The notes under the pieces were generated by a model. That model was not told where the DNA came from, ran no database searches, and was given only the letters and a program-made list of their open reading frames with translations. A stretch of DNA of 64,000 bases. Source: Escherichia coli (GTDB lineage Bacteria; Pseudomonadota; Gammaproteobacteria; Enterobacterales; Enterobacteriaceae). The stretch's first letter is position 1, and the number at the start of each line of letters is the position of its first letter. The DNA lies in the NCBI RefSeq assembly GCF_024502345.1, contig NZ_JALDNN010000001.1; one strand, written 5' to 3'. This document shows, one piece after another, positions 10,201 through 53,435 of the stretch. Made by a program: the position numbers and the translations under genes.

Positions 10201-10316
10201 CGGACCATTGATACCGGCAGGGTTTGTTCTCACCCGCCCGGTATCAGGCTTTAAGAATGCCGGAAGATGCTTCTGATACCCTTCCGGAATTTGCCAGATG
10301 ACGCACAGGATGCACC

Positions 10317-13300: not shown

Positions 13301-13433
13301 TGGGACGGAGCTAAATGAGACGCTACCAAAGCTCAGTCCGCTGAATCCTCAGTACAAAACGAAAAAGCAGACTGTATTCCAGAAAATTGGGGCATTTATC
13401 GAAAAATTTAAAGGGGTTGGAGGACACCTCTAG
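10317..13433 (+). CDS. hsdR: Type IC restriction endonuclease/helicase subunit
   Basis: 1038 aa with helicase motifs TGSGKT and DECHRSQ. Its length and sequence fit an EcoR124I-type HsdR. Confidence 0.95.
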
Positions 13434-20566: not shown

Positions 20567-20812
20567 GTGTTGTATCTAATCGTGGGGGCAGGTCACTCGA
20601 CTTGGTTCCATTAAAAACCATGAAGTTGATATAGGGTCAAGATTTTATACGATATACACATCAAGCATCTTGCATGAGTCGCACTGACTGACCCGGGTTA
20701 GTTACCATCATATTCTTTATGGTTGAGACCATACGGAAATCAGTGAATTAAAAATATTTATTCATCCAAAACACAAATGGTTTTAAGAAAGCCTAATGCC
20801 CTTCTTGTAAAA

Positions 20813-21082
20813 TTATTCAAGATAGTCAAGTATGTTTTTTATATTGTCAATTAAGGCGACATGCAGGTCAGGGTCATCACATTCATCTGAATGGCAATAG
20901 GAAATATGTTGAAGTATAATTCTTTTTTTGAATTCACTAACTGTACACTCCAACTCATACACCGACCGTACGATATCAATACAAGGTTCATCATCGATTA
21001 AAAAATCCTGCATTTTATTATACTTATCAGTCAGATCTTCTATCATAGAAATTAATACGGGGTCATTAACTAACATTGGCAT
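20813..21082 (-). CDS. small acidic hypothetical protein (89 aa)
   Basis: ORF 20813-21232 trimmed to the ATG at 21082 after GAGGAG. Overlaps the AraC gene end by 17 nt. Confidence 0.4.
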   Translation of the reverse strand: MPMLVNDPVLISMIEDLTDKYNKMQDFLIDDEPCIDIVRSVYELECTVSEFKKRIILQHISYCHSDECDDPDLHVALIDNIKNILDYLE

Positions 21083-21470
21083 ATCTCTCCTCATAATCTG
21101 AAAGTAAAGATGGACACAGCGCTGATAAATTCCAATTCCCTTGCTTGCGGTACCGACCGGGAGGAAGATGAAACTTGTTTTTAAAAGCTCTCGTGAAAGT
21201 TTGTTGCGAATTAAAACCATACTGAAGTGCAATGTCTAGGACTGTTCTGGAAGTCAATTTCAGATCAATCGCAGCACATGATAATCGACGAGCACGAACA
21301 TATTCACCCAGCGCAACACCGGTCGTCTGTTTAAACAAACGTTGAAAATGCCATCGTGAATACCCAGACTTCTCAGCAATAAATTCTACTGGCAAGGTTG
21401 TATTCAATGAACTTTCAACCCACTGCAAAATATCTTTGACAACACTTTCAGAATATTTCCTGGTGTCCAT
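21066..21470 (-). CDS. small AraC-family regulator (MarA/SoxS/Rob-N-like, two HTH)
   Basis: IAEKSGYSRWHFQRLFKQTTG and ALQYGFNSQQTFTRAFKNKF are canonical AraC HTH pairs. Confidence 0.8.
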   Translation of the reverse strand: MDTRKYSESVVKDILQWVESSLNTTLPVEFIAEKSGYSRWHFQRLFKQTTGVALGEYVRARRLSCAAIDLKLTSRTVLDIALQYGFNSQQTFTRAFKNKFHLPPGRYRKQGNWNLSALCPSLLSDYEERYANVS

Positions 21471-21562
21471 TCTCTCCCCCCAAACCATATTCTATGAATA
21501 TATTCAAACCAGAATACGGTCTCTGAGTCTGTCATCCATGAAGAACTCAGGGACCCAACTCT

Positions 21563-24064
21563 TTATTTTCGTAATAACCTCAGGCCATTTGCCACAACCA
21601 GAAGACTGGCACCAACATCAGCAAATACAGCCATCCACATAGTTCCCATTCCCATGAGCGTGAGTACAAGGAATACGGCTTTAATACCTAGAGCGAGGCT
21701 GATATTTTGCACGAGTAAGCTGTACGTTTGTCGGGATAATTTTACAAAGGCTGGGATTTTACGCAGGTCATCATCCATTAAGGCTACATCTGCAGTTTCA
21801 ATCGCCGTATCAGTACCCATTGCGCCCATAGCAAAACCGATATCAGCTGCAGCCAGAGCCGGTGCATCATTGATACCATCACCAACCATCCCAGTGATTC
21901 CAATCCGTGAATGCTCTTCAACTGCACGATGTTTATCTTCTGGCAATTGATTCCCTCGAGCCTCATCGATTCCAACCTGAGATGCGATTGCTTTAGCTGT
22001 ATGTGGGTTATCACCAGTCAGCATAATAGTTTTAACGCCAAGTTCATGAAGTTGTTCAATCGCTTCACGGCTGCTGTTTTTAACAGTATCAGCAACAGCG
22101 AACAACCCAAGCACTTGCTTACCATCATTGAGTAAAATAACTGTTTTACCCTGGCTTTCCAGCCTTTGTACTGTTGCTTTAATCTCTGATGGACAATTAA
22201 AGTGTTCTTCAGTCAAACGCAGGTTACCAAGGTAAAAATCCTTACCTGTAATCGCGCCATGCACACCTCGCCCAACAATCGCTTCAAAGCTGTCAACATC
22301 CTGCTTTTTCAAATCAGCAGAAGCATTCACAATTGCCAGTGAAACAGGGTGATCAGAGTAACTAGCGAGACTAGCTGCAGTAGTACGAACTTCACGCTCG
22401 CTCCACCCATTGAATACCATTACGTCGGTTTGTACTGGTTTCCCATAGGTAATAGTTCCTGTTTTATCCAGCGCAAGGGCTTTTAGCTTACGTCCCTGCT
22501 CAAGATAAACACCGCCTTTAATGAGAATCCCTTTGCGAGCAGCTGCAGTAAGTCCACTAACAATCGTTACTGGCGTAGAAATAACCAGGGCACATGGACA
22601 CGCAATGACAAGCATAACTAAAGCTTTATAGATCCACTCCTGCCATGTTCCTGCCCCAAACAATGGTGGCAATACAGCAACCGCAACAGCAATACCCATA
22701 ACGACGGGGGTATAAATCTGGGAAAAGCGGTCAACAAAACGTTGTGTAGCTGCTTTGGCGCCTTGCGCCTGCTCAACGGCATGAATGATGCGAGCAAGGG
22801 TTGTATTATTTGCAGCTGCAGTGACTTTATATTCAAAAGAGCCTGACTGATTTATTGTTCCAGCAAATACAGCATCGCCCGCAATTTTATCGACAGGCAT
22901 ACTTTCACCTGTAATTGGAGCTTGGTTAATGGTGGTTTGGCCTTTGACGATTTCTCCGTCGAGACCAATTCGTTCACCTGGTTTTACCCTGACAATACTG
23001 CCCGGTTGTACGCTACTGGCGTCAACTTCCTGCCATGTTCCATCAGCTTGTTGGACCATTGCAGTTTCAGGAGTCAGGTTCATCAGGGAACCTATTGCAT
23101 TTCTGGCTCTATCAAGTGATTTGGCTTCTATCAGCTCGGCAATGGTGAATAACACCATAACCATCGCCGCTTCTGGCCACTGCCCAAGGACCAAAGCCCC
23201 AGTAACGGCAATACTCATTAGTGCATTGATATTCAAGTTGCCATTGCGAATCGAAATCCAACCTTTTTTGTAGGTTGTCAGACCACAAGAAAGCACTGCT
23301 ATCAAAGCCAACCCAGCTTCTAGCCAGTCAGGCATATCAGCCCAGTGCATCACTTCGGCTGCAAGAGCAGCTACGCCAGCAAGAGCTAATGGCCACCAGG
23401 GCTTTTTTTTCTCCTGGGTATTTTTCTTGCCGCTAGTATTATCAGAGACTTCTGGCGCGAATCCCAACGAGCGAATTGCAGCCATGATAGCTTCAAGCGA
23501 ATCCGGTGTATGGGTTACAGTCAAAACACGCTGCATCAGGTTGAAATCAAGCTCTTTAACAGCGCTCATTCCACCCAGTTTCTTTTTGATAAGATTTTCT
23601 TCAACAGGACAATCCATCTGCATAATGCGAATTTCTGTCCGTAATCCACCAGCCACAACCTGCGAGCCCCCTAGGCTACTCAATTGTTCTGGAGCAGCGG
23701 AGCAACAATCCCCCTCATGGCCGTGATCGTGGCCTTCATGAGAATGCTCTTGCGCGGCATGAGCATGGTTACATCCCTTATGATTATGCTCATCATGCGA
23801 ATGCCCTTCGCCGCCATGGCTATGGGCATCATGATTATGGCCTTCATGGTTATGGCCTTCATGGTTATGACCTTCATGGGAATGATCATCACTGCATTTC
23901 TTGTGATTATGAGCCTGCTGATCATGTGCATGATCATTTGCTTTATGTGATTCACCAGTATTCTTAACCCGGAGTCCTGTCCCTAAATTGAACGTTTCAC
24001 AGCAACTAGCCGCTTCGTCTCCTGCAGGGTTTTTGCTATTTTTTACACCACCACTCATTTTCAT
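21563..24064 (-). CDS. P1B-type heavy-metal ATPase, Zn/Cd/Pb class (ZntA/CadA-like) with a His-rich N-terminus
   Basis: CPC motif (ACPCALVISTP), [13 protein letters not shown], an MDCPVEE metal-binding domain and a long HxH-rich tract. Confidence 0.9.
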   Translation of the reverse strand: MKMSGGVKNSKNPAGDEAASCCETFNLGTGLRVKNTGESHKANDHAHDQQAHNHKKCSDDHSHEGHNHEGHNHEGHNHDAHSHGGEGHSHDEHNHKGCNHAHAAQEHSHEGHDHGHEGDCCSAAPEQLSSLGGSQVVAGGLRTEIRIMQMDCPVEENLIKKKLGGMSAVKELDFNLMQRVLTVTHTPDSLEAIMAAIRSLGFAPEVSDNTSGKKNTQEKKKPWWPLALAGVAALAAEVMHWADMPDWLEAGLALIAVLSCGLTTYKKGWISIRNGNLNINALMSIAVTGALVLGQWPEAAMVMVLFTIAELIEAKSLDRARNAIGSLMNLTPETAMVQQADGTWQEVDASSVQPGSIVRVKPGERIGLDGEIVKGQTTINQAPITGESMPVDKIAGDAVFAGTINQSGSFEYKVTAAANNTTLARIIHAVEQAQGAKAATQRFVDRFSQIYTPVVMGIAVAVAVLPPLFGAGTWQEWIYKALVMLVIACPCALVISTPVTIVSGLTAAARKGILIKGGVYLEQGRKLKALALDKTGTITYGKPVQTDVMVFNGWSEREVRTTAASLASYSDHPVSLAIVNASADLKKQDVDSFEAIVGRGVHGAITGKDFYLGNLRLTEEHFNCPSEIKATVQRLESQGKTVILLNDGKQVLGLFAVADTVKNSSREAIEQLHELGVKTIMLTGDNPHTAKAIASQVGIDEARGNQLPEDKHRAVEEHSRIGITGMVGDGINDAPALAAADIGFAMGAMGTDTAIETADVALMDDDLRKIPAFVKLSRQTYSLLVQNISLALGIKAVFLVLTLMGMGTMWMAVFADVGASLLVVANGLRLLRK
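23831..23875 (-). repeat. 3 x 15-bp tandem repeat encoding HEGHN units in the ATPase His-rich tract
   Basis: Read directly: ATGRTTATGRCCTTC x3 on the plus strand. Confidence 0.9.
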
Positions 24065-24090
24065 TGCCTCATCTGTTAACTATACTGACG

Positions 24091-24121
24091 ATTAAAGACC
24101 CTAATCTAACTAGAGGGTCAA
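24091..24121 (-). promoter_or_regulatory. MerR-type promoter/operator for the Zn/Cd/Pb ATPase
   Basis: The minus strand reads TTGACC-19 nt-TTTAAT. The dyad ACCCT-N11-AGGGT lies in the overlong spacer. Confidence 0.75.
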
Positions 24122-24139
24122 GCGCATAAGGGGGGAGGC

Positions 24140-24592
24140 ATGAAAATTGGTGAATTGGCCCGTAAGGCGGATTGTCCGGTGGAAACTATTCGGTACTATG
24201 AGAAAGAAGGATTACTTCAGGCTCCATTAAGAGATATTGAAAATAACTATCGCCGTTACAACAATACTCATCTGGAAAAGTTATTATTTATCCGACGCTG
24301 CCGCTCTCTTGATATGACCCATGAGGAAATACGTGCATTGCTACTGGCAATGAATAATCACGGTAAAGACTGTGGCCCCATTGATGCAATAATCAGTGCC
24401 CATCTCACTCATGTTCAGCATCGTATTAAAGAATTAATAGCCCTGGAAATACAACTCAAAGAACTTAATAACTATTGCAGCTCAGACCGGAGCGTGGACG
24501 AATGCGGGATAGTACAGAAATTGACTGCTGATGAAGAGAATGGTGATCTTCCTTTAACCGTACCAACTGACCACTTGGGGGGTGTGCATTAG
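24140..24592 (+). CDS. MerR-family metal sensor (CadR/ZntR/PbrR-like)
   Basis: MKIGELARKADCPVETIRYYEKEGLL. Divergent from the ATPase, and the RBS GGGGGGAGG is present. Confidence 0.85.
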   Translation: MKIGELARKADCPVETIRYYEKEGLLQAPLRDIENNYRRYNNTHLEKLLFIRRCRSLDMTHEEIRALLLAMNNHGKDCGPIDAIISAHLTHVQHRIKELIALEIQLKELNNYCSSDRSVDECGIVQKLTADEENGDLPLTVPTDHLGGVH

Positions 24593-24681
24593 TGGTGTGC
24601 GCTTATAAGTTGATTAGACTGATGGCGTAACACAAGCCCATACAGCTTTGTGCTACGCCATCATGCCCTTAAAATAAGGGG

Positions 24682-25146
24682 TCAGGCTTTTTCCATTTCG
24701 TTACCACGAGAACGACGTTGCACTGCCCCTTCTCTCTTACCGGGATGGCTTTTAGCATCAGCGGTCATTAATGTCTGGAGTATTGGGCATTCAACTCGCT
24801 CATCCCCAGCACAGCTTTTGATCAGAGCTCTGAGTGTATCTGCCATTCGTCGCATATTTTCCATACGTCGCTCTAAATCATCCATATGCTCTTGTGCCAG
24901 ACGTTTAACATCGGCGCTCTGGCGAGATTTGTCATTCCATAACTTGAGCAAATCGGCTATCTCTTCAAGAGAAAAACCAAGATCGCGCGCACTGCGGATA
25001 AAAATCAGACGATGGACATCATTGGGTGCATAATCACGGTAGCCCGCTTCGGTACGGCCAGTAGCAGGAATCAGACCAATTTGCTCGTAATAGCGAATCA
25101 TCTTTGCGGAGATTCCTGATTCGTTCGATGCTTTACCAATGTTCAT
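24682..25146 (-). CDS. cueR: MerR-family Cu(I) sensor (CueR-like)
   Basis: MNIGKASNESGISAKMIRYYEQIGLIP plus a C-terminal C...C pair (CAGDERVECP). ORF-track ORF 24682-25284 trimmed to the ATG at 25146. Confidence 0.8.
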   Translation of the reverse strand: MNIGKASNESGISAKMIRYYEQIGLIPATGRTEAGYRDYAPNDVHRLIFIRSARDLGFSLEEIADLLKLWNDKSRQSADVKRLAQEHMDDLERRMENMRRMADTLRALIKSCAGDERVECPILQTLMTADAKSHPGKREGAVQRRSRGNEMEKA

Positions 25147-25159
25147 AGCTCCCCTTTTC

Positions 25160-27655
25160 TTAGTGCTCAGAGTCTTCTGCCAGCGGAGGCTGGAACCGAC
25201 GCAAACGAAGTGCGTTGCCCAGGACAAATACACTGGATAGCGCCATCGCGCCTGCAGCAAAGATTGGTGAAAGCAGCAATCCATAGGCAGGGTACAGCAG
25301 GCCTGCTGCTACAGGGATCAATGCGGCATTATAACCAAACGCCCAAAAAAGATTTTGCCTGATGTTACCTATGGTTGCCTTAGACAATCCAATAGCATTA
25401 GGCACACCCTGTAGGTTGCCGGACATTAAGACAACATCAGCAGATTCCACCGCTATATCGGTACCTGTACCAATTGCAAGCCCAATATCTGCCACGGCTA
25501 AAGCTGGGGCATCATTAATGCCATCACCAACATAAGCGACCTTACCGTAAGACTCCTTCAACCGACGAACTGCTTCAACTTTCCCTTCTGGCAACACTTC
25601 GGCAACCACTTCATCAATACCAAGCTGTCTCGCAATCGCATTTGCTGTATTGGCATTGTCACCGGTAATCATTGCGACTTTGAGCCCCAGTTGGTGCAAT
25701 GCATTTATGGCAATCGGCGTACTTGATTTAATAGGGTCAGCGACTGCGATAATGGCAGCCAGACGTCCATCAATAGCAACATAGAGTGGCGATTTTCCTT
25801 CGTTTCCAAGGCGTATCGCAGTCTTTGAAAAATACTCGATATCCAAGCCTAACTCACGCATAAATCGATCGGCCCCGACCTCTACGCGCTCTCCGTCTAC
25901 GGTAGCCCTGACGCCCATCCCAGTAATTGAATCAAACTCAGTCAACGCTGGCAGCGATATCTCTTTTCCTAGAGCAGCTTCAACGATAGCGCGGGCAATA
26001 GGATGTTCCGAACGTGATTCAACAGCGGCAACTTTTGCTAATACTAAGTCAAGCTCAAACCCTTCGGCCAACTCCAGGTCTGTCATTACTGGGCGCCCTT
26101 CAGTCAAAGTACCTGTTTTGTCTACAGCGACAACCCTGGCATCTTTAAGCAACTGCAGAGCTTCTCCCTTACGGAACAAGATCCCCATTTCTGCACCACG
26201 CCCAGTACCTACCATGATAGAGGTTGGGGTAGCCAATCCCATTGCACATGGGCAGGCAATGATCAATACAGCCACGGCATTAACCAGTGCGAAAGACAGG
26301 GCCGGTGATGGCCCAAATGTTAACCAGGCAAGGAAAGTTAACAACGCTGCCAGCATCACCACAGGAACAAACCATAATGTCACCTTATCGACCACGGCTT
26401 GTATAGGTAGTTTAGAGCCCTGGGCTTGCTCTACCATTCTGATTATTTGTGACAACATCGTCTGGCCACCAACGGCTGTTGCACGCAACCTCAATGCTCC
26501 TTTCTGGTTAACAGTCCCGCCAACCATTAAGCTTCCGGGAACTTTCTCGACGGGGATAGGCTCCCCCGTTATCATCGATTCATCGACAAAACTTGTTCCT
26601 TCACTCACCTCACCATCAACAGGTATCCGCTCACCTGGTCGAACTTCGATAATGTCATCAAGGGCTACATCACTAATGGGAATATCGATGACAATGCCGT
26701 TACGCAGCACATGCGCCTCTTTGGCCTGCAATCCAACCAAACGCTTGATAGCCTCAGACGTTCGACCTTTAGCTCGCGCCTCCATAAATCGTCCTAAAAG
26801 AATAAGAGCGACGATTACCGCAGCAGCTTCGTAATACACATTGACGGTACCTTGAGGCAAAAGACCTGGAGCAAAGGTCGCAATCATTGAATAACCGAAT
26901 GCAGCGAGAGTCCCGACGGAGACGAGAGAGTTCATGTCTGGGCCAAGTCTTAATAACGCGGGAATACCTTTCAGGTAAAAGCGCCGCCCCGGAATAGCCA
27001 ACACCAGCAATGTTAATACAAACTGGAGATACCAGCTTTCCTGGAGCCCAATGGTATCCATTATCCATTGATGCATTCCCGGTATCACATGCGACCCCAT
27101 TTCCAGAATAAATACTGGTAACGCAAGTACGGTCGCCAGAACTAAATCTTTCTTCAACGCAACCTTTTCAGCATCTTTTTTTTCTGCGGCACTATCATTA
27201 TTCTGGCTTTGGTTATCAACCAGGCTGGCTTCATAACCGATTTTTTCGATAGCAGTTATGAGGTCATCAACTCCTGCGGTTCCACGTACAGTAGCTCTTT
27301 CAGTCGCTAAATTAACAGTGGCTTCTTTTACACCTTTAACCGCTCGGAGCGATTTTTCGACACGCCCTACGCATGATGCACATGTCATGCCCTGAACTGA
27401 TAACTCTACAGAAGCTTGAGGAACCTCATAACCAACCTTTTCAACTGCTTCAACCAACGCCATACGATTAACGAATGCATTTAGGCGGATATCTGCACGC
27501 TCTGTTGCAAGGTTAACGCTTACGTTTTGTACGCCTTCAACCTTAGCCAGAGCGGCTTCAACTCGTCCAACGCAGCTTGCACAAGTCATTCCCTCAATGG
27601 GCAAGCTGACTTGAGTTTCACCATCATTAGAATGCTGTTTTTTTTGAATGCTCAT
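25160..27655 (-). CDS. copA: Cu(I)-translocating P1B-1 ATPase
   Basis: Two N-terminal [15 protein letters not shown] domains, CPC ([11 protein letters not shown]), DKTGT and GDGINDAP. Confidence 0.9.
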
Positions 27656-27691
27656 GATGTATTTCTCATCGTTATGGTCAGATAAAGAACA

Positions 27692-27722
27692 ACCTTAAGG
27701 CTTACCATCGTGGGAAGGTCAA
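27692..27722 (-). promoter_or_regulatory. CueR-type MerR promoter for copA
   Basis: The minus strand reads TTGACC-19 nt-TAAGGT with the dyad CTTCCCA-cga-TGGTAAG, similar to E. coli PcopA. Confidence 0.7.
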
Positions 27723-27777
27723 GCGCATTATTTTGAACATGCCGATGCCGTGGAAGGAATGGATATAAAAACCCTTT

Positions 27778-27800
27778 ACATGAACACATATTCATATGTT
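27778..27800 (+). promoter_or_regulatory. ArsR/SmtB (CzrA-like) operator upstream of the CDF gene
   Basis: ACATGAACACATATTCATATGTT closely resembles the S. aureus czr operator core ATGAACAAATATTCAGATG (recall). Confidence 0.6.
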
Positions 27801-27840
27801 ATATTGAAGGCATCATGTATAACCAACCGCTTGAGGCCCT

Positions 27841-28845
<1,005 letters not shown>

Positions 28846-28890
28846 TCAGGCCTCTGGTGATGCACTATCAATTTAGGAGGGAGAATCATA

Positions 28891-29253
28891 ATGTCCAGCA
28901 CATCAGATTGCGGCAACATACAAGACTGTTCCGCGACAGATCATGTCGCGGAGCCAGATCTATCAATGCTCTCGCAAAACGACATTGGGCAACTTTCCGA
29001 GATTTTCCATCTACTGGGGGACCAGTCAAGACTACGAATCCTGCTTTACTGTATGCGTGGTTCGGTCTCTGTAGGCGACATTGCTGAGTCGCTCCAGTTA
29101 TCACAATCTCTGGTCAGTCATCATCTGAGGTTGTTACGAAGTGCAAGGCTTGTTCGCGGAGAGAGAAAGGGTAAGTACATATTTTATAGCATAATGGATC
29201 ACCATGTAAGTCATGTTCTTCAGGACATGGTATTTCACATAGCTGAAGAATAA
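28891..29253 (+). CDS. ArsR/SmtB-family metalloregulator
   Basis: LGDQSRLRILLYCM...VGDIAESLQLSQSLVSHHLRLLRSARLV is a canonical ArsR wHTH. Confidence 0.85.
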   Translation: MSSTSDCGNIQDCSATDHVAEPDLSMLSQNDIGQLSEIFHLLGDQSRLRILLYCMRGSVSVGDIAESLQLSQSLVSHHLRLLRSARLVRGERKGKYIFYSIMDHHVSHVLQDMVFHIAEE

Positions 29254-29486
29254 CCCGAATGAATTTTGATAAGTAGAGCTTGTGTAATTCCAACTCACCT
29301 TAGTTTTTCATTACTTTGGTGAGTTGTTTCATCATTAATTTATTAAAACCTTAATAATTAACCTTTTAATAATGAAACCTGCCCCCTTCCCTTGTATGTA
29401 ATAAATACCTGATGGTTCACTATCACCAGATAAAGCGAAGTGAGCAGGCCACCTCATGAAGGAGAAACCTTGCTTTGCAAGCTTAT

Positions 29487-29508
29487 TGAATAGCCACGGA
29501 TAATCTAG
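29487..29508 (+). repeat. solo terminal-IR remnant of the IS3-family element found at 33425-38146
   Basis: TGAATAGCCACGGATAATCTAG versus TGAATCGCCACGGATAATCTAG at 33425 (21/22 match). Confidence 0.7.
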
Positions 29509-29510
29509 TT

Positions 29511-29550
29511 TGTCTGCTTCGTGCCAAAAGCGGACATTGCTACATCACAA
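29511..29550 (+). repeat. hairpin repeat copy 1 (TGTCTGCT-loop-AGCGGACA) plus 10-bp TACATCACAA
   Basis: Read directly. The partner copy is at 32483-32518. Confidence 0.85.
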
Positions 29551-29637
29551 TGCGTTATGGTCAACATCAGAATGCAGCCCTTGTGTTGTGACGTGTAGTC
29601 TGGCCTAAACGCAGTTGCACTACATTACCTCGTGGGG

Positions 29638-29886
29638 TCAGCGACGGCCCCGTTTCAGTTCACGTACACAGGGATCATACTCATCTGCATAGCCACCAAA
29701 GTCATGGCTGGGCATGAAGTACCACTTTTCACCTTTCCAACCAGCGATCCGGGTGGTCGGTTTGGTTTTATTCAGAACAACAATACAGACGCCGACGGGA
29801 GACACTGGAGGAAGAAGTCGTTGCACCACACACTCACGATTGCCCACATCAATCCAGTCTTTGACGTGAATTTCAGGATGGTTCAT
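29638..29886 (-). CDS. hypothetical protein (82 aa)
   Basis: ORF-track ORF, co-oriented with and downstream of the AAA_13 ATPase, inside the hairpin-bracketed segment. Confidence 0.4.
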   Translation of the reverse strand: MNHPEIHVKDWIDVGNRECVVQRLLPPVSPVGVCIVVLNKTKPTTRIAGWKGEKWYFMPSHDFGGYADEYDPCVRELKRGRR

Positions 29887-30166
29887 TGTTTATCTTCATG
29901 TGATGGAATTGCTTACCGTAATGCATCCGATTACCGTGCAAGATCATGTATCCTGTCGCCTTCCTGCTCCCTTGAGGTGGCGCTGCCTTGGTACAGTCAG
30001 CACTCTGAATGTCAGGCCCAGCCGCGAGGCCGGAAGCTCATCAGGTCGCTGCGGTAGGGGAAAACGGTCCGGGTAACAGACCGTAATCGCCTGCTGGTGG
30101 TTATTGGCCCTGACTGGAGCCGCACTGAAAACTGAAGCGCATTAATATACTCGCGCCTCCGACAGG

Positions 30167-32305
30167 TCAGGCAATTTCTTCCAGCGCATCGTCATTTGCC
30201 GGTGGAGGAGGAAGTATAAGCGCGTCGCACTCCCTGATGACATATTCAGGAATGAGATCAAACCGGGCAGGATCCAGCTGACAGATAAATTCATTTTCAA
30301 TGTGGTAGGTCTCATTCATGAATTTACGTATTACTGCGTTCTCGAGTCCGGTCTGAAGCAACCTGAACACCTGCAGTTTCTCGTAGCCATTACGGCAGAG
30401 CAGATAAAGCGCACGTATACGATCCGGGTCGGTGAGCTGAACGAAAGTGGCCTGGTAGTCAAAGCCGGGAATGCGATCGGCGATTGCCTGGCAGCCGAAG
30501 GCAACTTTTTCTGCGGACATTTCAGGATGTCCCACTCCCTGCACAACGGGTTCACGGGTGTCGATGGGCGTTTCACGGTGATGAAAAAGGTTTGACAGCA
30601 CCTGATAGGCATCACCGAGGTCGTCCATAATTTCATAATGTCGGCGAAGATAGATCAACTTGATGATGTCTTCACTATCAGAGTCAGTGACAGACTGGCA
30701 GATCTGAGCAAAAGTGCGGATATCACTTTCACCGATGAGCTGCTCGGTGATGCAGCCTGCGCTGTAGTGCAAGTGTGAGGCCGTAACCAGATTACTGAAC
30801 AGCTTCCTGACGGACTTCAGTGTATCAATAATAGGCTCAACATCGTGAGTCAGCATCAGTACCGTTTCATTTTTCAGGCACTCACCGGTATTGCGGCGAA
30901 ACAGCATCTCCAGGATGGCAAATTTCTTGTTCTTATCAAACGATGAAATCGGGTCGTCAAGAATGATCAGGCCTGGCTTCTTGGCTAAGCATTCATACAT
31001 AAACAGAACAATGGCAAAGGCGTTGCGTTCACCGTAGCTGAGATGCTGGCTGCCGCCGCTGACGTAGCCTTCAAAGTCTTCGTGGCGCAGTTTCAGCCGA
31101 CATTTATCGCCTTCCCCAGTGATATCCACCTGATAACGATAGCCTGCGTAAGCCAGAAAGGTATTGATATCGGTTTTATGCTTGAGGATCAGCTTCTGCA
31201 TGCCCTGACGCTGCTTATTTATTTGACCCTGCAGGCGTCCGGCCTGCGTCGTCAGGTCGTCTAAAGAGGTATTGAGACTGGCTACGGTGCGGGCCGTTTT
31301 ATCCGACTGCAGCTCCGGGAAAAACTTCACGTCTAGGCGACAGGCTTCCAGTGCAGCCTTGACGTTGGTTGAAGCGCTGAACGTAAAGCCGTTAAGAGTC
31401 TTAAGGGTATTCAGCATATTTATCAGGCTGTCTGTCTGCTTCTTCACTGTCACGAGATATTCTTCGTGCTGTTTTTCCAGCCCACTTTTTAGGGTTGTAA
31501 TATCAGCGAGGCGGGCACGGGCAGGCTCTGAAAAATATTCGCCGAGTTTATCTAGCACGCCGATCAGGCCGATCAGGTTTTTAATGACAGCCTTATCATA
31601 CTCCGCGCTGACGCGGCTAATCTGCTCGGCCTTTTCACGGGAGTCGCCAGTACAGAACGGACAGCAGCCGTCGGATAGCGCGGAGAATTTCTCATACCCC
31701 CGGGTCTGCCACTCGATCCACTCTACGCTGCTTTTACTTTGGATGTACGGCTTATAAGATTCCAAACCGTCGGGAATGTGCTGAAGCTTGTTGCCAGCGG
31801 ATAAGCCTTTCATACCGGTAGACGTTTTTGCAATCCCGGTACTACTCAGCTTAAATGCGGCGCTGAGTTCCCCCAGGTGCGTGATGAATTCTTCAAGCCC
31901 GACGTTATCAGCAAACTGCTGCCGTATGGCCACGACCATGGCTTCGATTTCGCGTTCTGTCTCGTGATACGCTTCACTTTTGATGAAGATGTCAAAACTA
32001 TTACTTACTAACTCGTCTGGTTGAAAAGTGAATTGATCGACATATTTTTCATTAAAGCACATGACGTTTTGCAGGCCATCGACACCAGTTACCCTAGGCT
32101 GTACTGCATCGGGATTAGAACCACGGTATCTAAACGGAAGCAGGTCGCTGAGACCCTGTTCATCCCCGTTTACCGTACACTGAATCGCGCGGGAAATGGT
32201 GCTTTTTCCGGTGCCGTTAGGCGCAAATTTAATATTTAGTTTTTTTTCTGCCAGAGTTATATTTGCTTTATCGATGTTATTACAGCAATTAATTTCAATT
32301 TCCAT
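30167..32305 (-). CDS. AAA_13 / RloC-PrrC-like ABC-type ATPase (candidate anticodon nuclease or abortive-infection protein)
   Basis: Walker A APNGTGKST, a coiled-coil insert with CCPFC, signature LSYGERNAF and Walker B LIILDDP. The C-terminal region contains RRHYE...FHHRE. Confidence 0.65.
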   Translation of the reverse strand: MEIEINCCNNIDKANITLAEKKLNIKFAPNGTGKSTISRAIQCTVNGDEQGLSDLLPFRYRGSNPDAVQPRVTGVDGLQNVMCFNEKYVDQFTFQPDELVSNSFDIFIKSEAYHETEREIEAMVVAIRQQFADNVGLEEFITHLGELSAAFKLSSTGIAKTSTGMKGLSAGNKLQHIPDGLESYKPYIQSKSSVEWIEWQTRGYEKFSALSDGCCPFCTGDSREKAEQISRVSAEYDKAVIKNLIGLIGVLDKLGEYFSEPARARLADITTLKSGLEKQHEEYLVTVKKQTDSLINMLNTLKTLNGFTFSASTNVKAALEACRLDVKFFPELQSDKTARTVASLNTSLDDLTTQAGRLQGQINKQRQGMQKLILKHKTDINTFLAYAGYRYQVDITGEGDKCRLKLRHEDFEGYVSGGSQHLSYGERNAFAIVLFMYECLAKKPGLIILDDPISSFDKNKKFAILEMLFRRNTGECLKNETVLMLTHDVEPIIDTLKSVRKLFSNLVTASHLHYSAGCITEQLIGESDIRTFAQICQSVTDSDSEDIIKLIYLRRHYEIMDDLGDAYQVLSNLFHHRETPIDTREPVVQGVGHPEMSAEKVAFGCQAIADRIPGFDYQATFVQLTDPDRIRALYLLCRNGYEKLQVFRLLQTGLENAVIRKFMNETYHIENEFICQLDPARFDLIPEYVIRECDALILPPPPANDDALEEIA

Positions 32306-32482
32306 ACCTAATCCTTTACGGCAAAGACACTGAGCAGGCCCCGTATATTGCAGGCCCGATTAATTATTTAAGCTGAAGCCAGAACATATAAGCACCGTTT
32401 CATTTTTGAGTAAAGCACTCCGGGATTCGCCCTTGGTACCGCAGCGCCGGAGCAGTTGTTTTATAGAGCGTATGTACGGCGC

Positions 32483-32518
32483 TTGTGATGTATGTCCGCT
32501 TCGTGCCAAGAGCGGACA
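32483..32518 (+). repeat. hairpin repeat copy 2 (TTGTGATGTA plus TGTCCGCT-loop-AGCGGACA)
   Basis: Read directly. The hairpin has the same orientation as copy 1, while the adjoining 10-mer is inverted. Confidence 0.85.
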
Positions 32519-32588
32519 TTTGCACCCTCAGTACCCGCACCAGACTAAGCCGGCTCAGCAATGTCGGCGTTGCTGATACTGACAGACG

Positions 32589-33424
32589 TTATGCCGTTTT
32601 AAAGCGACGTTTCCGGTGTATCACCATGAGAGCGACAATTACCGCCACCGCAATTGTCGCGGTCCCCCGGAAGACGACTGATGAATCTCCTAGGATGATT
32701 TCCATGAATGATGATAAAAACTGGCCGGAGAATATAGCCATAGAAAGCCAGGCAAGGTTACGTCCCCGGACGCGAGCGTGACTCTGCTCGACTGTCATAT
32801 GATTCACAAGCGGCACCGACAGACCAAACCCACAACTCATTAAAACCCCGCCAGCGATGTAGAACACTACATTATCAGCGAATGAAAATATGAAATGTCC
32901 GGCAGCGTAGCAGCTAAACGCCGTGTACAGATTTCCGTACTCACGTAAACGCGCTATGAGGCGCGGCATCATCGCAGCAGCCCCGACGGCGACCAGTGAG
33001 ATAAACGACAGAAAGTATCCGGTTTCTGCTGCCCCAATAGCCATGCAGCTAAACACCTGCGGAATGATGATAATGCTGGTGAAGAAGCAAATCATGGACA
33101 GCAGGGCTGCAAAAAGCACAGGCGCTAATCGAGTCGCACTCACCGATTCGCTTTCTCCGGCGTTTTCATTCATGTTTTCTGTCCCAGAGGACAATTGTTA
33201 CGGCACAAACGCCAGCTGCATAACCAGAAGAACCTAGGCAAAAAGATGAAGCAAAAACGGCCACTGCCAGCCAAGGGTTGCAAGTAATCCGCCTATAAAC
33301 AGAAAAATGACACCGCCCAGCTCAATCAACATTCCCTGCGAAGGTATCATTTTCAGGCAAGCCTGACCGCTATGAAACGAGGAAATCAATCCGGTTCCTG
33401 CTGACATGACGATGGCGGTATCTG
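32589..33424 (-). pseudogene. MFS-type transporter remnant: 5' end removed by IS insertion, two in-frame stops
   Basis: The 6-TM ORF at 32589-33194 continues in the same frame upstream through TAA (33198-33200) and TAG (33234-33236) into further TM-like sequence, up to the IS end at 33425. Confidence 0.6.
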
Positions 33425-33442
33425 TGAATCGCCACGGATAAT

Positions 33443-33909
33443 CTAGACACTTCCGAGCCGTTGATAATACTGGTTTTCATATTCTGTCGGTGACATCTGA
33501 TCGCTAGAACCATGCCGACGCCTACTGTTATAAAACATTTCGATGTAATCAAAAATATCGCTGCGGGCTTCTTCCCGCGTTCCGTAGATCTTTTTCTTTA
33601 TCCGCTCGCGTTTCAGTAACTGGAAAAAGCTTTCTGCAACCGCGTTATCGTGGCAGTTACCACGACGGCTCATGCTGCCCTCCAGTCCGTGTGATTTCAG
33701 GAACGACTGCCACTCATGGCTTGTGTACTGACTGCCCTGATCCGAGTGAACCAGCACCTGTTTTTGGGGGTTACGCCGCCATACAGCCATCAGCAGTGCG
33801 TTCAGGACAATGTCCTTTGTCATCCGGGATTGCATTGACCAGCCGATAATTTTACGTGAGAACAGATCAACAACCACGGCAAGATACAGCCAGCCTTCGT
33901 GAGTCCTGA
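33443..33909 (-). pseudogene. IS3-family orfB, 3' part (exon 2 relative to the intron)
   Basis: The translation continues IRTHEGWLYLAVVVDLFSRKIIGW...HSDQGSQY...NAVAESFF. Confidence 0.85.
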
Positions 33910-33960
33910 GTAGAGTAAGAGGCAGGGCGTAGTCGGACTATTTCCCTGCCTCTCCTCCCC

Positions 33961-33994
33961 GAACCGGACGTGCACCTTTCAGCGCATCCGGCTC
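33961..33994 (-). ncRNA. group II intron domain V
   Basis: The minus strand reads GAGCCGGATGCGCTGAAAGGTGCACGTCCGGTTC, a canonical 34-nt DV hairpin with a GAAA loop, 5 nt after the IEP stop. Confidence 0.9.
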
Positions 33995-33999
33995 TCCAT

Positions 34000-35523
34000 T
34001 TAAATGCTGGCGAACGCCATTGCCACTTCTGTAAAGCGCGATGTATACGTGTTTCTGGTCTCCGTCCTCAGATAGGGATTACCTTCGGGTAGCCGCCAGC
34101 GGAACAGCTTCTTGCCTTGCCCCACCAACCGGTACAGTATTTCGCCGCTGAGCTTGCCGTGATTGGTTTTACCAAATAAAACCCACGTTTTGCTCTGACC
34201 CGGTTTCGGTGATTTACACCACCACCTCATCAGGGAAGCGATACCTGTACGGTATTTGCGGGCCAGCCAGTGAGCCAGCTTCCAGAACACGACACGGTCG
34301 ATATAACTGAAGACTTTGGCCTTAAAATCAACGAACTGATAGAACATAGCCCAGCCTTTCAGTTTTCGGTTGAGTTGTTCAGCCATATCGACTTTGCTTT
34401 CACTGTAGTTGCCTGATAACAGTGCTGTCAGCGATGCGGCGAAGTTTCTGGCTTTCTCCTGCGGGATCGTTGAGACCACTCGCATCTCGCCATAACGACT
34501 GCGTTTGCGAATGATCCTGTGCCCCAGAAAGATAAAGCCGTCATTAACATGGGTGATTTTAGTCTTATCCATGTTCAGCCTGAGTTTCAGACTGCCTTCG
34601 AGCACACCCCGACACTCCTCCCTGATGGCTTCCGCCTGTGCTTTGGTGCCTTTGACGATGAGGACAAAATCATCGGCATAGCGGCAGTACGCCACCGCGG
34701 GTTTCCACTGCCAGTTTTCTCTGACCGCCGTACTTCGGCCCCGTTGGATACTGTTATTCCAGTACCACCGATCTTTTCTGGCTTTCCCGCTCAGGTAGCG
34801 CTCATGCAGGTATTGATCGAACTCATTCAGCATGATGTTCGATAATAGCGGCGATATAACACCGCCCTGTGGCACACCTTCACTGGCCGCCCGAAAGAGA
34901 CCGACATCGATATGTCCCGCCTTGATGGTTTTCCACAGCAGAGTCATGAAACGTGCGTCACTGATCCTGCGGCGTACAGCCTTCATCAGCAGTCGATGAT
35001 GTACGGTGTCGAAGTAACTGGACAGGTCGCCTTCAATCACCCAGCGTCCCCGGGTTTCACCACAGTCTGTGAGCTGTAATTTCACCGTGCGGATCGCGTG
35101 GTGGACACTGCGCTCAGGCCGGAAGCCATATGAGAGCGTATGAAAATCACTCTCCCATATCGGCTCCATCGCCATCAGCATGGCCCGCTGAACAATACGA
35201 TCCCGCAACGCGGGGATACCCAGTGGTCGCAGTTTGCCGTTGCTTTTAGGGATGTAAACCCGTCTGGCGGGCAAGGGCTGGTAGTGGCCTGAGAGTAATT
35301 CATCCCTGAGGATTTGCAGCTCAACAGCCAGTCTGGCCTGTAGCATTGTTTTGTTCACGCCATCAACGCCGGGGGTATGGGCCCCCTTTGATGAAAGCGT
35401 GATCCGCGCCGCTTCAGCCAGCCATTCTGGTTGTGTTATCAGACGCAGCAGCCGTTGAATCCGTAGGGACGGATCGGTGGCTGCCCATGTGGCAAGCTTG
35501 CGTTGCATTTCGCTGATTATCAA
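34000..35523 (-). CDS. group II intron reverse transcriptase/maturase (IEP)
   Basis: RT motifs are present, including YADDFVLIV, plus a maturase (X) domain. No obvious HNH endonuclease Cys/His cluster is seen at the C-terminus. Confidence 0.9.
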   Translation of the reverse strand: MIISEMQRKLATWAATDPSLRIQRLLRLITQPEWLAEAARITLSSKGAHTPGVDGVNKTMLQARLAVELQILRDELLSGHYQPLPARRVYIPKSNGKLRPLGIPALRDRIVQRAMLMAMEPIWESDFHTLSYGFRPERSVHHAIRTVKLQLTDCGETRGRWVIEGDLSSYFDTVHHRLLMKAVRRRISDARFMTLLWKTIKAGHIDVGLFRAASEGVPQGGVISPLLSNIMLNEFDQYLHERYLSGKARKDRWYWNNSIQRGRSTAVRENWQWKPAVAYCRYADDFVLIVKGTKAQAEAIREECRGVLEGSLKLRLNMDKTKITHVNDGFIFLGHRIIRKRSRYGEMRVVSTIPQEKARNFAASLTALLSGNYSESKVDMAEQLNRKLKGWAMFYQFVDFKAKVFSYIDRVVFWKLAHWLARKYRTGIASLMRWWCKSPKPGQSKTWVLFGKTNHGKLSGEILYRLVGQGKKLFRWRLPEGNPYLRTETRNTYTSRFTEVAMAFASI

Positions 35524-36179
35524 AGGTCTTCACCTCGTTAGGTCAGTTAATTCACGTCGCAAACACATTCAAACTGCTTCCCTTCGCCATGTAATGGGCT
35601 TTCCCCATCGCGGACTACTACGGAAGCTCCGCCAGCCAGCGCGTCATCGGAGCCATGCCCCCTTAACATCCGTCGCTGACCTTCCCCGGTTTACCTGCCT
35701 GGACTCAGGCATACTGAGGAGGCTGCCCGTCGCACTCTTTATCCTTGCTTGCCGCAAGTTGGCAGAAGTCAGCAACGCAAGCGTGATAGACGCTGCTGCC
35801 CCGGTGTTTCGCATACATGTCAAAACACCTTCGACCGGCAGTGCTTACGTATCACTGCCAGTTCCTCCTGCACGGCCTGTCAGATCACGTAGGCCGTGGT
35901 GACGTTTTCAACCCACAGAGGCGGATTAACGGGTTCATGTTCTTCAGCCTTTCAGTACTTAACCTTGAGGATCATCTCGGCTTAGTGATCTCGCCTCAAT
36001 CCCCGTTGTCAGCGGGTTACATCACCCTGCGGGCATGCCGCAGGTCACTGCCGCTCAGGTTCTCCACCGTCACACCCGGTGGGATTGTTGGGTTTCTCAT
36101 CGTGAGTTACCGGTTCAATATTCCAGACAGACTCGCGGTTCATTTAAGCATCCATGCCCGCCCTGAACTCCGGGCACAC

Positions 36180-36611
36180 TGTAGGTTATGTCCGTTACCC
36201 AACGCTCATCCGGAGCATCCGGATTGAACTGTCGCTGGAGCCTGTTGGGCGACACAATACTGGCCTCGCCTTTACGTGCCCGCGGGCTCCGGTATCCGAC
36301 CTGAGCCTTTATCCCGACACGTTTCATCAGTCGCCAGACTCTGTTGACTCCGCACTGTTGCCCGCTATCCCGCAGATCCAGATGGATCTTGCGATAACCA
36401 TAGACACATCCCGATTCCAGCCAGAACTGTTTAATCTGTCCTGTCAGTCTCAGGTCTACCTGATGGCGTTGTGAATGCGGCTGCTGAAGCCAGGAGTAAA
36501 AGCCACTGGGATGAACATCCAGCACCCTACAAAGCAGGCGAACAGGCCAGAAACAGGTGTTGTCGCGGATAAAGGCGTACCTCAGTCGGACAGTTTTGCG
36601 AAGTACGCCGC
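36180..36611 (-). pseudogene. IS3-family segment: orfA 3' end (...AAYFAKLSD*) and orfB 5' half
   Basis: The translation ...GFYSWLQQPHSQRH...ERWVTDITY ends at the intron 5' junction. Confidence 0.85.
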
Positions 36612-37832
36612 TGTAGATTCAATTGGTCAACGCAACAGTTATGTGAAAACATGGGGTTGCGGAGGTTTTTTGAATGAGACGAACATTTACAGCAGAGGAA
36701 AAAGCCTCTGTTTTTGAACTATGGAAGAACGGAACAGGCTTCAGTGAAATAGCGAATATCCTGGGTTCAAAACCCGGAACGATCTTCACTATGTTAAGGG
36801 ATACTGGCGGCATAAAACCCCATGAGCGTAAGCGGGCTGTAGCTCACCTGACACTGTCTGAGCGCGAGGAGATACGAGCTGGTTTGTCAGCCAAAATGAG
36901 CATTCGTGCGATAGCTACTGCGCTGAATCGCAGTCCTTCGACGATCTCACGTGAAGTTCAGCGTAATCGGGGCAGACGCTATTACAAAGCTGTTGATGCT
37001 AATAACCGAGCCAACAGAATGGCGAAAAGGCCAAAACCGTGCTTACTGGATCAAAATTTACCATTGCGAAAGCTTGTTCTGGAAAAGCTGGAGATGAAAT
37101 GGTCTCCAGAGCAAATATCAGGATGGTTAAGGCGAACAAAACCACGTCAAAAAACGCTGCGAATATCACCTGAGACAATTTATAAAACGCTGTACTTTCG
37201 TAGCCGTGAAGCGCTACACCACCTGAATATACAGCATCTGCGACGGTCGCATAGCCTTCGCCATGGCAGGCGTCATACCCGCAAAGGCGAAAGAGGTACG
37301 ATTAACATAGTGAACGGAACACCAATTCACGAACGTTCCCGAAATATCGATAACAGACGCTCTCTGGGGCATTGGGAGGGCGATTTAGTCTCAGGTACAA
37401 AAAACTCTCATATAGCCACACTTGTAGACCGAAAATCACGTTATACGATCATCCTTAGACTCAGGGGCAAAGATTCTGTCTCAGTAAATCAGGCTCTTAC
37501 CGACAAATTCCTGAGTTTACCGTCAGAACTCAGAAAATCACTGACATGGGACAGAGGAATGGAACTGGCCAGACATCTAGAATTTACTGTCAGCACCGGC
37601 GTTAAAGTTTACTTCTGCGATCCTCAGAGTCCTTGGCAGCGGGGAACAAATGAGAACACAAATGGGCTAATTCGGCAGTACTTTCCTAAAAAGACATGTC
37701 TTGCCCAATATACTCAACATGAACTAGATCTGGTTGCTGCTCAGCTAAACAACAGACCGAGAAAGACACTGAAGTTCAAAACACCGAAAGAGATAATTGA
37801 AAGGGGTGTTGCATTGACAGATTGAATCTACA
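36612..37832 (+). mobile_element. IS30, complete (1221 bp) with a 2-bp GC target duplication
   Basis: Ends are TGTAGATTCAATTGGTCAACGC and ...GATTGAATCTACA. GC flanks both ends. Confidence 0.95.
36674..37825 (+). CDS. insI: IS30 transposase
   Basis: 383 aa, MRRTFTAEEKASVFELWKNGTGFSEIANILGSKPGTIF... matches the IS30 transposase by recall. Confidence 0.95.
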   Translation: MRRTFTAEEKASVFELWKNGTGFSEIANILGSKPGTIFTMLRDTGGIKPHERKRAVAHLTLSEREEIRAGLSAKMSIRAIATALNRSPSTISREVQRNRGRRYYKAVDANNRANRMAKRPKPCLLDQNLPLRKLVLEKLEMKWSPEQISGWLRRTKPRQKTLRISPETIYKTLYFRSREALHHLNIQHLRRSHSLRHGRRHTRKGERGTINIVNGTPIHERSRNIDNRRSLGHWEGDLVSGTKNSHIATLVDRKSRYTIILRLRGKDSVSVNQALTDKFLSLPSELRKSLTWDRGMELARHLEFTVSTGVKVYFCDPQSPWQRGTNENTNGLIRQYFPKKTCLAQYTQHELDLVAAQLNNRPRKTLKFKTPKEIIERGVALTD

Positions 37833-38083
37833 GCGGCTTTTTTTAATATGTCCCGTTCGTCGGTAACCCGCTTCAGCTCTTTCTGAAGGCGGCGGATCTC
37901 GGTCTGAGCATCTGACTGTTCTTTATTAGTGGAAGAATCCGGGCCGTACTTCTTTATCCAGGCGTAAAGGCTGTGGGTGGTGATATCGAGACGTGTTGCA
38001 ACGCTGGCAACAGAATAACCGCGATCAACAACCTGTTTGACTGCTTCAATTTTAAACTCTTCGGGATAACGCTTACCGCTCAT
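37833..38083 (-). pseudogene. IS3-family orfA 5' part, cut by IS30 next to the A7G frameshift motif
   Basis: MSGKRYPEEFKIEAVKQVVDRGYSVASVATRLDITTHSLYAWIKKYG...ILKKAA, then IS30. Confidence 0.85.
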
Positions 38084-38239
38084 GGGCACCTCTCTTTAAG
38101 CCATCTTAAATGACTCTGAGGTGTCTGTTAAACCCGTGGCGATTCAAGAAGGTTGAATATGATTCCCGACTCATTAATGGAACGCTGCATGATGTTATGC
38201 ATTACGGGTTGACATTACGATGTGACGGGCCGGGTTAGC

Positions 38240-38726
38240 TGTATGGAGCCTGTACACAAGTTTGTGTAATTGCCTGATTTTGATATGTTCAATTCAACAT
38301 CAAAAGCAGGTTACTTTATGGACGAAAAACAGTTGTAGGCTCTGGCTAACGAACTGACCAAAAATCTCAAAACCCCTGACGATCTCAACCAGTTCGATCG
38401 CCTGCTGAAAAAAATCAACGTTGAGCGCCGCCTCAACGCCGAAATGCTCCATCACCTCGGCTACGGTAAACATCAGTCTAAACCGGGTGCCAACTCCCGC
38501 AACGGCTATTTCACAAAAACCGTTACCACCGGCGATGGCCCGCTGGAACTGCGTACGCCGTGCGATCGTGACGGCTCCTTCGAGCCCCAACTGGTGAAGA
38601 AAAACCAGACCCGGATCACCGGGATGGATAACCAAATCCTGTCACTGTACGCCAAAGGGATGACCACCCGTGAGATAGTGGCTGCGTTCAAAGAGTTGTA
38701 TGACGCGGATGTCTCACCGACGCTGG
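38240..38726 (+). pseudogene. IS256-family (IS1414-like) fragment: left end plus a transposase N-terminus with an in-frame TAG, truncated
   Basis: ATG at 38318 and TAG at 38336-38338. The frame then reads ALANELTKNLKTPDDLNQFDRLLKK...GMTTREIVAAFKELYDADVSPTL. The left boundary is approximate. Confidence 0.7.
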
Positions 38727-39030
38727 TAGTCCTTCATGCTCCGGAAGGTCAGACTGATGTTGTCTTCACTGCCATCATCAGCAAGCGTGTTTTTAACGGT
38801 AAGATTGACTTTTGGGGAATATTCAGAAATGACAGAATCACAATTATTTTTATTCAAATCAACTTTTTTGCGCTCAGACAAGGGGCAGACTCCTGACCAT
38901 TACTGAAGTCGCCCGCCACGAGCAATTTCAGGGGGAGCTCCGTTTTCTTGCTCGCACCACCGGTATGCAAATCAAGTTTTAAATTAATACGCGCTTTAGG
39001 GATTTCGGACTGAAAGGAAGAATTAGACAT
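38727..39030 (-). pseudogene. tssB: T6SS sheath small subunit TssB (VipA) remnant: frameshifted and 3'-truncated
   Basis: The minus strand reads MSNSSFQSEIPKARINLKLDLHTGGASKKTELPLKLLVAGDFSNGQES, then a frameshift, then PLSERKKVDLNKNN...ISLTFRSMKD. It ends at the IS256-family junction. Confidence 0.75.
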
Positions 39031-53414: not shown

Positions 53415-53435
53415 TATAATTATCCTTATTAACCG

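Follow-up and report, generated by a model that had tools for sequence, protein, structure and literature searches.

A 64,000-nt stretch of an Escherichia coli genome (NCBI RefSeq assembly GCF_024502345.1, contig NZ_JALDNN010000001.1; hereafter the window) contains, at 33425..38146 on the minus strand, a 4,722-bp tract in which five pseudogene fragments lie among two intact genes. What are these pieces, how did they come together, and what became of the DNA on either side? A first-pass annotation, made from the sequence without database searches, had described the tract as a three-level nest, in which an insertion sequence (IS) of the IS3 family was interrupted by both a group II intron and IS30, and had suspected a rearrangement nearby. 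In the analysis reported here the fragments and genes resolve into three named elements (the IS3-family host, the group II intron E.c.I4 and IS30), the nest is best read as a product that has arisen repeatedly, and about 30 kb that sister plasmids carry is accounted for by a deletion at the nest. This explanation as a whole, which takes in the identities and anatomy of the elements, their recurrent invasion and the deletion from a plasmid backbone, is put forward with good confidence. Its main value lies in annotation and in the history of the island that carries the nest: such nests are present in many public genomes as automatically annotated fragments, the nest is already known in kind and represents ordinary mobile-DNA behavior, and the current understanding of these element families is unchanged.

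Anatomy and identity of the nested elements

The host element is an IS3-family IS, 1,229 bp long by itself, which lies on the minus strand in three segments. The 3′ segment (33425..33909; IS positions 745–1229) comprises the right inverted repeat (IRR) and the C-terminal part of orfB; the middle segment (36180..36611; IS positions 313–744) comprises the N-terminal part of orfB; and the 5′ segment (37833..38146; IS positions 1–314) comprises the left inverted repeat (IRL), orfA minus its last codons, and the slippery site. The terminal inverted repeats (IRs) are imperfect (38 nt, 74% complementary), begin with TG and end with CA; TGAATCGCCACGG is read at both ends of the element, at one of them as the complement, with 13 identical terminal bases. 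On the plus strand the boundaries (marked by a slash) read ...GGTATCTG/TGAATCGCCACGGATAATCTAGACAC at 33425 and ...GTGTCTGTTAAACCCGTGGCGATTCA/AGAAGG at 38146. The host IS was rebuilt in silico by subtracting the intron, IS30 and one copy of the GC dinucleotide that IS30 duplicated, which left 1,229 bp, a length inside the IS3-family range of 1.2–1.55 kb. In the rebuilt element orfA is intact (92 aa) and ends just past the slippery sequence A AAA AAA G (IS positions 303–310), and the −1 frame stays open through orfB to its stop codon. The rebuilt OrfA matches Pfam HTH_Tnp_1, and the rebuilt OrfB matches HTH_21, rve, rve_2, and rve_3.

Uninterrupted elements found in 184 of 5,426 complete E. coli genomes align with the rebuilt host from position 1 to position 1229 at approximately 97% identity; these relatives are labeled "IS3 family transposase, programmed frameshift" by the NCBI Prokaryotic Genome Annotation Pipeline. 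Because this alignment runs from end to end, the boundaries inferred for the host IS are right. The first-pass annotation had arrived at the same boundaries and had suggested a comparison with an uninterrupted copy as a check; all of its coordinates and lengths for the three-level nest are exact to the base, and the remainder of 1229 bp that it recognized as a typical IS3-family length with matching IRs is the element that aligns in full with the uninterrupted copies. The window has a distinct variant of the host IS, 38–49 nt away from the host copies of other nests.

E.c.I4 (2,270 bp) occupies 33910..36179 on the minus strand and lies in orfB in sense orientation. Its first bases are GTGTG and its last bases are AC, and the Rfam model for group II intron domains V/VI (RF00029) matches 33910–33996 with a score of 64.9 bits against a gathering score of 40. 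The intron carries an intact ltrA gene (34000..35508, minus strand) for a reverse transcriptase/maturase of 502 aa; this LtrA matches Pfam RVT_1 and GIIM, is without an endonuclease domain according to Pfam, and is identical to the protein WP_001189111.1 annotated in L008, one of the loci that were compared with the window and are numbered here with the prefix L. The insertion point follows IS position 744 and falls within the codons for W-V-T-D-I-T-Y-I (OrfB residues 129–136), at the start of the rve match, which we take by homology to be the region of the first catalytic Asp. At the nucleotide level the intron is 99.7% identical to the 1,764-bp fragment in the CP4-6 prophage of E. coli K-12, which is listed in a published supplement as E.c.I4-tr1 (prophage CP4-6, 1764 bp). 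IS3-like transposases of IS629, IS911, ISEc16, and ISEc31 are homing targets of E.c.I4 (Leclercq and Cordaux, 2012, PMC3522654), and the retrohoming intron entered the host orfB in sense orientation at the conserved D-I-T-Y-I codons; to judge from its sequence, it could in principle splice out of the transposase mRNA. In the E.c.I4 retrohoming described by Leclercq and Cordaux (2012; PMC3522654), the intron and the type of target are those seen here and the insertion point within the transposase gene is likewise fixed, but that study does not consider a co-resident IS30 such as the nest in the window contains. The K-12 gene for the small RNA EyeA (b4690) corresponds to 35716–35790 (minus strand) in the 5′ half of the intron, and because of this correspondence eyeA of K-12 lies inside an E.c.I4 fragment.

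IS30 (1,221 bp; 36612..37832, plus strand) lies antisense to its host and is 99.8% identical to IS30A of K-12. Its transposase gene is intact (36674–37825; 383 aa; Pfam HTH_38 and rve), and both invaders, IS30 and E.c.I4, are intact as elements. IS30 is flanked by a 2-bp target duplication, GC, at 36610..36611 on the left and 37833..37834 on the right, and its inverted repeats lie within 31-nt arms, 90% complementary, that also span the GC duplication and flanking bases. The target GC (IS positions 313–314) is the center of the palindrome GCCGCGGC and lies 4 nt 3′ of the slippery heptamer; IS30 is known to prefer hot spots (Szabo et al., 2022, PMC9333248). Insertion of IS30 into GCCGCGGC has cut off the end of orfA and parted orfB from the frameshift site by 1.2 kb. 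Because IS30 separates orfB from the frameshift site, the host IS would be unable to make the OrfAB transposase, and this anatomy suggests that the dead element could be mobile only with transposase supplied in trans.

The flanks of the nest and the DNA lost between them

The host IS is not surrounded by a direct repeat: the left flank ends in CTG (33422..33424), at the deletion junction described below, and the right flank begins with AGA (38147..38149). The first-pass annotation had made the same observation and had concluded that the host IS was not a simple insertion, which is borne out by comparison of each flank with relatives of the window. On the left, 20596–33424 is colinear with, and at least 99.97% identical to, plasmid pMB18183_1 of E. 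coli strain 44 (100% identical over 29000–33424), and 21193–33424 is colinear with plasmid pKpCol17ndm of Klebsiella pneumoniae except for an IS66 insertion of that plasmid's own. This flank is uninterrupted in L001 and L015, and in pMB18183_1, which has no IS here, the sequence ...TATCTG/ACTGAAATC... leads into genes for a Cap15-family protein and a nucleotidyltransferase. On the right, the sequence from 38147 is 100% identical to an island in the chromosome of EH09-18-41 and, also at 100%, to at least 18 large plasmids of Klebsiella, Raoultella, Citrobacter, and E. coli. Both flanks are held by pKpCol17ndm, in which position 33424 of the window corresponds to base 149,732 and position 38147 to base 180,332; the 30,599 bp between them are absent from the window, a figure that includes two IS insertions possibly specific to pKpCol17ndm. 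The absent DNA encodes a Cap15-like and CD-NTase pair, NIPSNAP and DUF3147 proteins, a fluoride-riboswitch/eno/crcB cluster, MipA, a heavy-metal-associated protein, a two-component system, and a pair of RND efflux systems. For the genes lost at the 33424/38147 junction, the loci used for comparison were L015 (14734–26001) and L014 (1–20000). In L002 and L014 the sequence just left of the base corresponding to 38147, ...GGCTCGGAAGTGTCTAGATTACCCGTGGCGATTCA, is a 41-bp IRR remnant of the same IS (40 of 41 bases). The outer end of this remnant is the exact nucleotide at which the IRL terminates in the window; the remnant itself is absent from the window, lost with the deletion.

These comparisons show, at the level of sequence, that about 30.6 kb was lost here from a backbone of the pKpCol17ndm/pMB18183 type, between the flanks of the IS. 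The earlier suggestion of an IS-mediated rearrangement or deletion was right in that a rearrangement exists, but it lies between the element's own flanks and not across 29.5–33.4 kb, where it had been expected. The opposite polarity, a gain of 30.6 kb by the sister plasmids, was rejected as unparsimonious, since their arrangement is present in at least 18 plasmids and one chromosome, since the junctions there are clean (on the left in L001, on the right in L002 and L014), and since the sister sequences have an IRR remnant at the very base where the window has an IRL end. The nest explains the absence of about 30 kb relative to the sister plasmids, including the CBASS-like pair, fluoride resistance and the two RND efflux systems; because the deletion took these genes, the island in the window has lost a defense system and several resistance modules that its sisters retain. 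One endpoint of the deletion coincides to the base with the old IR remnant, which is the footprint expected either of IR-targeted transposition or of recombination between homologous IRs.

Of these two, an IR-targeted insertion followed by a junction-driven deletion is the route that is favored, tentatively. OrfAB acting in trans would have inserted the element beside the IR-like 41-bp remnant with duplication of AGA; the insertion would have brought two IS ends into abutment, expected as ...GGCGATTCA-AGA-TGAATCGCC; and an attack by this junction on CTG in the same molecule, at a distance of 30.6 kb, would then have removed both the remnant and the DNA in between. There are documented cases of IR-targeting by IS911 (Loot et al., 2002, as cited in PMC9333248) and by IS30 (PMC9333248), and in copy-out/paste-in elements IR-IR junctions are highly reactive and give rise to deletions that start at the IR edge (PMC9333248). 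The window resembles the hot-spot insertions and junction-driven deletions described by Szabo et al. (2022; PMC9333248): IS30 duplicated 2 bp of a favored target that is in part a palindrome, and the deletion starts from an exact IR edge and has an IR-like sequence at its other breakpoint. It differs in that published IR-targeting involves the ends of IS30 and IS911 themselves, whereas the event proposed here would involve another IS3-family member acting on a 41-bp remnant.

Two results tell against this route. Neither the deletion intermediate nor the window's own junctions were found in E. coli genomes, plasmids, genome contigs, or metagenome contigs; the left junction in particular occurs in no collection searched, and the flanks of the nest in the window are unique. 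In addition, the terminal 15 bases of the IRL end and of the remnant are the same and lie in direct orientation, and a deletion by short homology, with no transposase involved, would give the same product. Because no deletion intermediate was found, the mechanism and the order of events cannot be read from the sequence; what is proposed here for the order of events and for the enzymology of the deletion is what we infer.

The second route, which is judged less likely, reverses the logic: the element would have inserted at 33424 with duplication of CTG, and the 30.6 kb would later have been lost without any transposase across the 15-bp identity ACCCGTGGCGATTCA. The direct identity that such an event needs does exist, recombination across it would give the observed junction with no scar, and the uninterrupted left junction of IS-free relatives, CTG/ACT, fits a CTG target. 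Against it, no intermediate with CTG on both sides of the element was found in the collections searched, and 15 bp spanning 30 kb is, on general grounds, a poor substrate: RecA-dependent recombination usually needs a longer identity than 15 bp, and slippage across 30 kb should occur only very rarely. Both routes yield the observed sequence without a distinguishing scar, and the probability that remains beyond them belongs to multi-step histories.

Recurrence of the nest in other replicons

Eight complete E. coli genomes and 20 PLSDB plasmids (from Citrobacter, Klebsiella, Enterobacter, and E. coli) contain nests of the same 4,722-bp architecture, with the same outer ends and at 93–99% identity to the nest in the window. 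Carriers include E. coli strains MB06022, WR3-3, and C and plasmids of C. freundii, E. hormaechei, and K. pneumoniae; the copies examined closely were ten nests plus that of E. coli C. These public nests share their ends, insertion points and length with the nest in the window but not its host variant or its flanks. They lie in unrelated contexts, such as a lambdoid prophage, the vicinity of a Qat defense system, a site next to repHI2, and the inside of a DUF5503 gene, and at five of nine independent sites the whole nest is surrounded by a perfect 3-bp duplication (GCT, AAA, CTT, AGT, and TGA).

The three components of these nests have histories that do not agree. Host IS copies differ between sites by 18–49 nt, and that of L006 by about 130 nt (10%), for an overall range of 1.5–10%, whereas most introns differ at 0–6 of 2,270 nt and IS30 copies at 0–2 of 1,221 nt (0.3% or less). 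Three IS30-family variants occupy the same dinucleotide: IS30 itself, "IS30H" at 10% divergence, and another at 18%. Each has an intact open reading frame (ORF), and they differ mostly at synonymous positions. The nearly identical host copies of L005, L007, and L011 (at most 6 differences) hold the three different IS30 variants; L010 and L013 have the same site and flanks and differ only in the IS30 variant; and L007 and L012, again with site and flanks in common, differ only in the intron variant (7.6% divergent). The divergent intron of L012 and the divergent IS30 relative of L011 occupy exactly the positions of their counterparts in the window. The former, in the K. pneumoniae plasmid pBckp021-1, is 7.6% divergent from E.c.I4 and has an intact 502-aa ORF with 25 residues changed; the latter, in an Enterobacter cloacae plasmid, is 18% divergent with 34 residues changed. 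In a census of complete E. coli genomes with 200-bp junction probes, 245 genomes had IS30 at the site oriented as in the window, 114 had it the other way round, and 128 had the empty IS30 site; the intron junction was detected in 47 genomes and the empty intron site in 705. The nest of E. coli C, in which IS30 is inverted, has the same GC duplication.

Because the divergences of host, intron, and IS30 are discordant, because divergent variants share the same positions, and because IS30 is present in both orientations, a repeated origin is the best reading of these sequences: two site-specific elements would have invaded copies of the IS independently and again and again, and the nest would not be a single composite that spread. 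That it arose once and spread as a unit, with uninterrupted copies supplying the transposase that mobilizes its ends in trans, is improbable. Such a history would account for the one architecture and length common to at least 10 replicons and for the 3-bp duplications around the whole composite at five sites, and the ends of the nest are intact and related active copies exist. It is contradicted by the discordant divergence of the components, by the three IS30-family and two intron variants at the same positions, by the two orientations of IS30, and by the three IS30 variants in the near-identical hosts of L005, L007, and L011; the uniform orientation of IS30 in the first sample of nests was a bias of the query, an oriented composite. 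As the sole source of the nest, a single origin is largely refuted. The 3-bp duplications around the whole nest and the constant orientation of IS30 were also considered as proof that the composite transposes as a unit, a reading that was dropped in view of the discordant distances, the 114 genomes with an inverted junction, and the query bias.

Some observations weigh on the other side of recurrent invasion and of the wider account. For the host IS, ISEc16 and ISEc31 are candidate names only. The census counts genomes and not independent events, uncorrected for shared ancestry, and its count of empty IS30 sites (128) is an underestimate relative to the 184 genomes that have a full uninterrupted copy. 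No 3-bp duplication was seen at any of the four uninterrupted copies examined. Finally, gene conversion could partly account for the low divergence of the invaders, in place of fresh insertion; it cannot explain the two orientations of IS30.

The result that was least expected is a quantitative one, namely that a single dinucleotide 3′ of the frameshift site appears to be occupied by IS30-family elements in most carriers: in the census, roughly three-quarters of the E. coli genomes that have this part of the IS have IS30 at the site. It is conceivable, if short of probable, that the stretch 3′ of the frameshift heptamer in this IS and in IS911 is a dedicated hot spot for the IS30 family that has been hit independently many times, in either orientation and by three or more diverged members of that family; no description of such a hot spot was found in the literature. 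If this were true, most E. coli genomes with this IS would hold a copy killed by IS30, and the site would be a systematic case of one IS disabling another at its regulatory core. The remaining components of the account have known precedents in the homing of E.c.I4 into IS3-like transposases, the insertion of IS30 at hot spots, the nest in K-12, and deletions associated with IS ends.

The K-12 nest, in the CP4-6 prophage, also has three levels and consists of IS911A, IS30A, and the E.c.I4-tr1 fragment (ykfC). IS30A lies 5 nt after the A AAA AAG site of IS911A, compared with 4 nt after the heptamer for IS30 in the window, and the intron lies in the D-V-T-Y-I codons of orfB, much as it lies in D-I-T-Y-I in the window. 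When the two targets are aligned on the IS30 duplication, 24 of 42 bases are shared. The K-12 host, however, is a true IS911 without detectable nucleotide homology to the IS in the window; IS30A has the opposite relative orientation and a duplication of AC instead of GC; and the intron and the rest of IS911A have been cut off by IS5A, unlike the arrangement in the window.

Several further features of individual copies were noted. The nest of E. coli C (L021; NZ_CP020543.1, 1894928–1899650) is 4,722 bp long, has IS30 inverted and a TGA duplication, and has split a DUF5503 gene in two by simple insertion. Several Citrobacter plasmids have an additional IS110-family element inside the nest, a fourth level of nesting that brings the total to about 6.3 kb (for example, NZ_CP056400.1, 111632–117941). 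The uninterrupted 1,229-bp copies L016–L019, a small sample, are also without any direct repeat of 2–5 bp, and L019 sits inside an IS911-like element.

Older remnants and the surrounding island

To the left of the nest, at 29487..29508 on the plus strand, is the 22-bp copy of the IR that the first-pass annotation had reported; it is real, matches the IRR specifically (21 of 22 bases), and is present in pMB18183_1 and pKpCol17ndm, which have no IS at 33425, and in the EH09-18-41 chromosome island. Because these IS-free relatives of the backbone have it, the 22-bp remnant is, on this sequence comparison, an older scar common to the whole backbone and lies outside the present rearrangement. The earlier proposal that this copy and the IS at 33425 mark the two ends of a rearrangement across 29.5–33.4 kb, to which the copy's genuine IRR origin and its orientation (the same as that of the IRR at 33425) had lent some appeal, can be set aside as very improbable, given that relatives with the remnant but without the IS match the interval (29487–33424, where they cover it) colinearly and at 99.97% identity or more, that the EH09-18-41 island has the remnant as well, and that the remnant abuts a hairpin repeat bracketing a separate AAA-ATPase module. 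A tblastn search found no longer, diverged remains of the IS beside either the 41-bp or the 22-bp remnant.

A decayed gene for an MFS transporter lies between this remnant and the nest in two fragments (32589..33407, minus strand); for the ORF at 32589–33194 (minus strand), the match to Pfam MFS_1 is confined to the C-terminal half. The first-pass annotation was correct that a decayed MFS gene adjoins the IS, but the gene was not broken by it, being equally decayed in IS-free relatives; truncation by the IS was rejected in view of the same fragmentation there.

The AAA-ATPase module (29521–32490) consists of two genes, one for a 712-aa ATPase of the AAA_13 family and one a small ORF. On either side it has a copy of a 31-nt direct repeat (29508–29538 and 32490–32520; identical at 28 of 31 bases), and each copy forms a hairpin, TGTCCGCT-N10-AGCGGACA. 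The 22-bp IRR remnant abuts the left of these hairpins. The same module is found in integrase-linked islands of approximately 82 E. coli chromosomes, where similar hairpins recur, and it may be a mobile or exchangeable cassette of the defense type.

The window leaves the backbone shared with pKpCol17ndm and EH09-18-41 at 20596/21193 on one side and at 50533 on the other. Outside the backbone it contains GmrSD (5394–7271), a type I restriction-modification (R-M) system (7475–13433), a P4-type integrase (14517–15782), a type III R-M system (50676–55142), an AIPR protein (55197–57062), and an SNF2 helicase (58140–61115); no tRNA gene is present in the window. Taken together, the window looks like a mosaic island of defense and metal resistance. 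Immediately right of the nest, 38342–39030 is identical to sequence in EH09-18-41 that is annotated there as a truncated transposase gene of the IS256 family and a frameshifted tssB fragment, both of them debris of earlier rearrangements.

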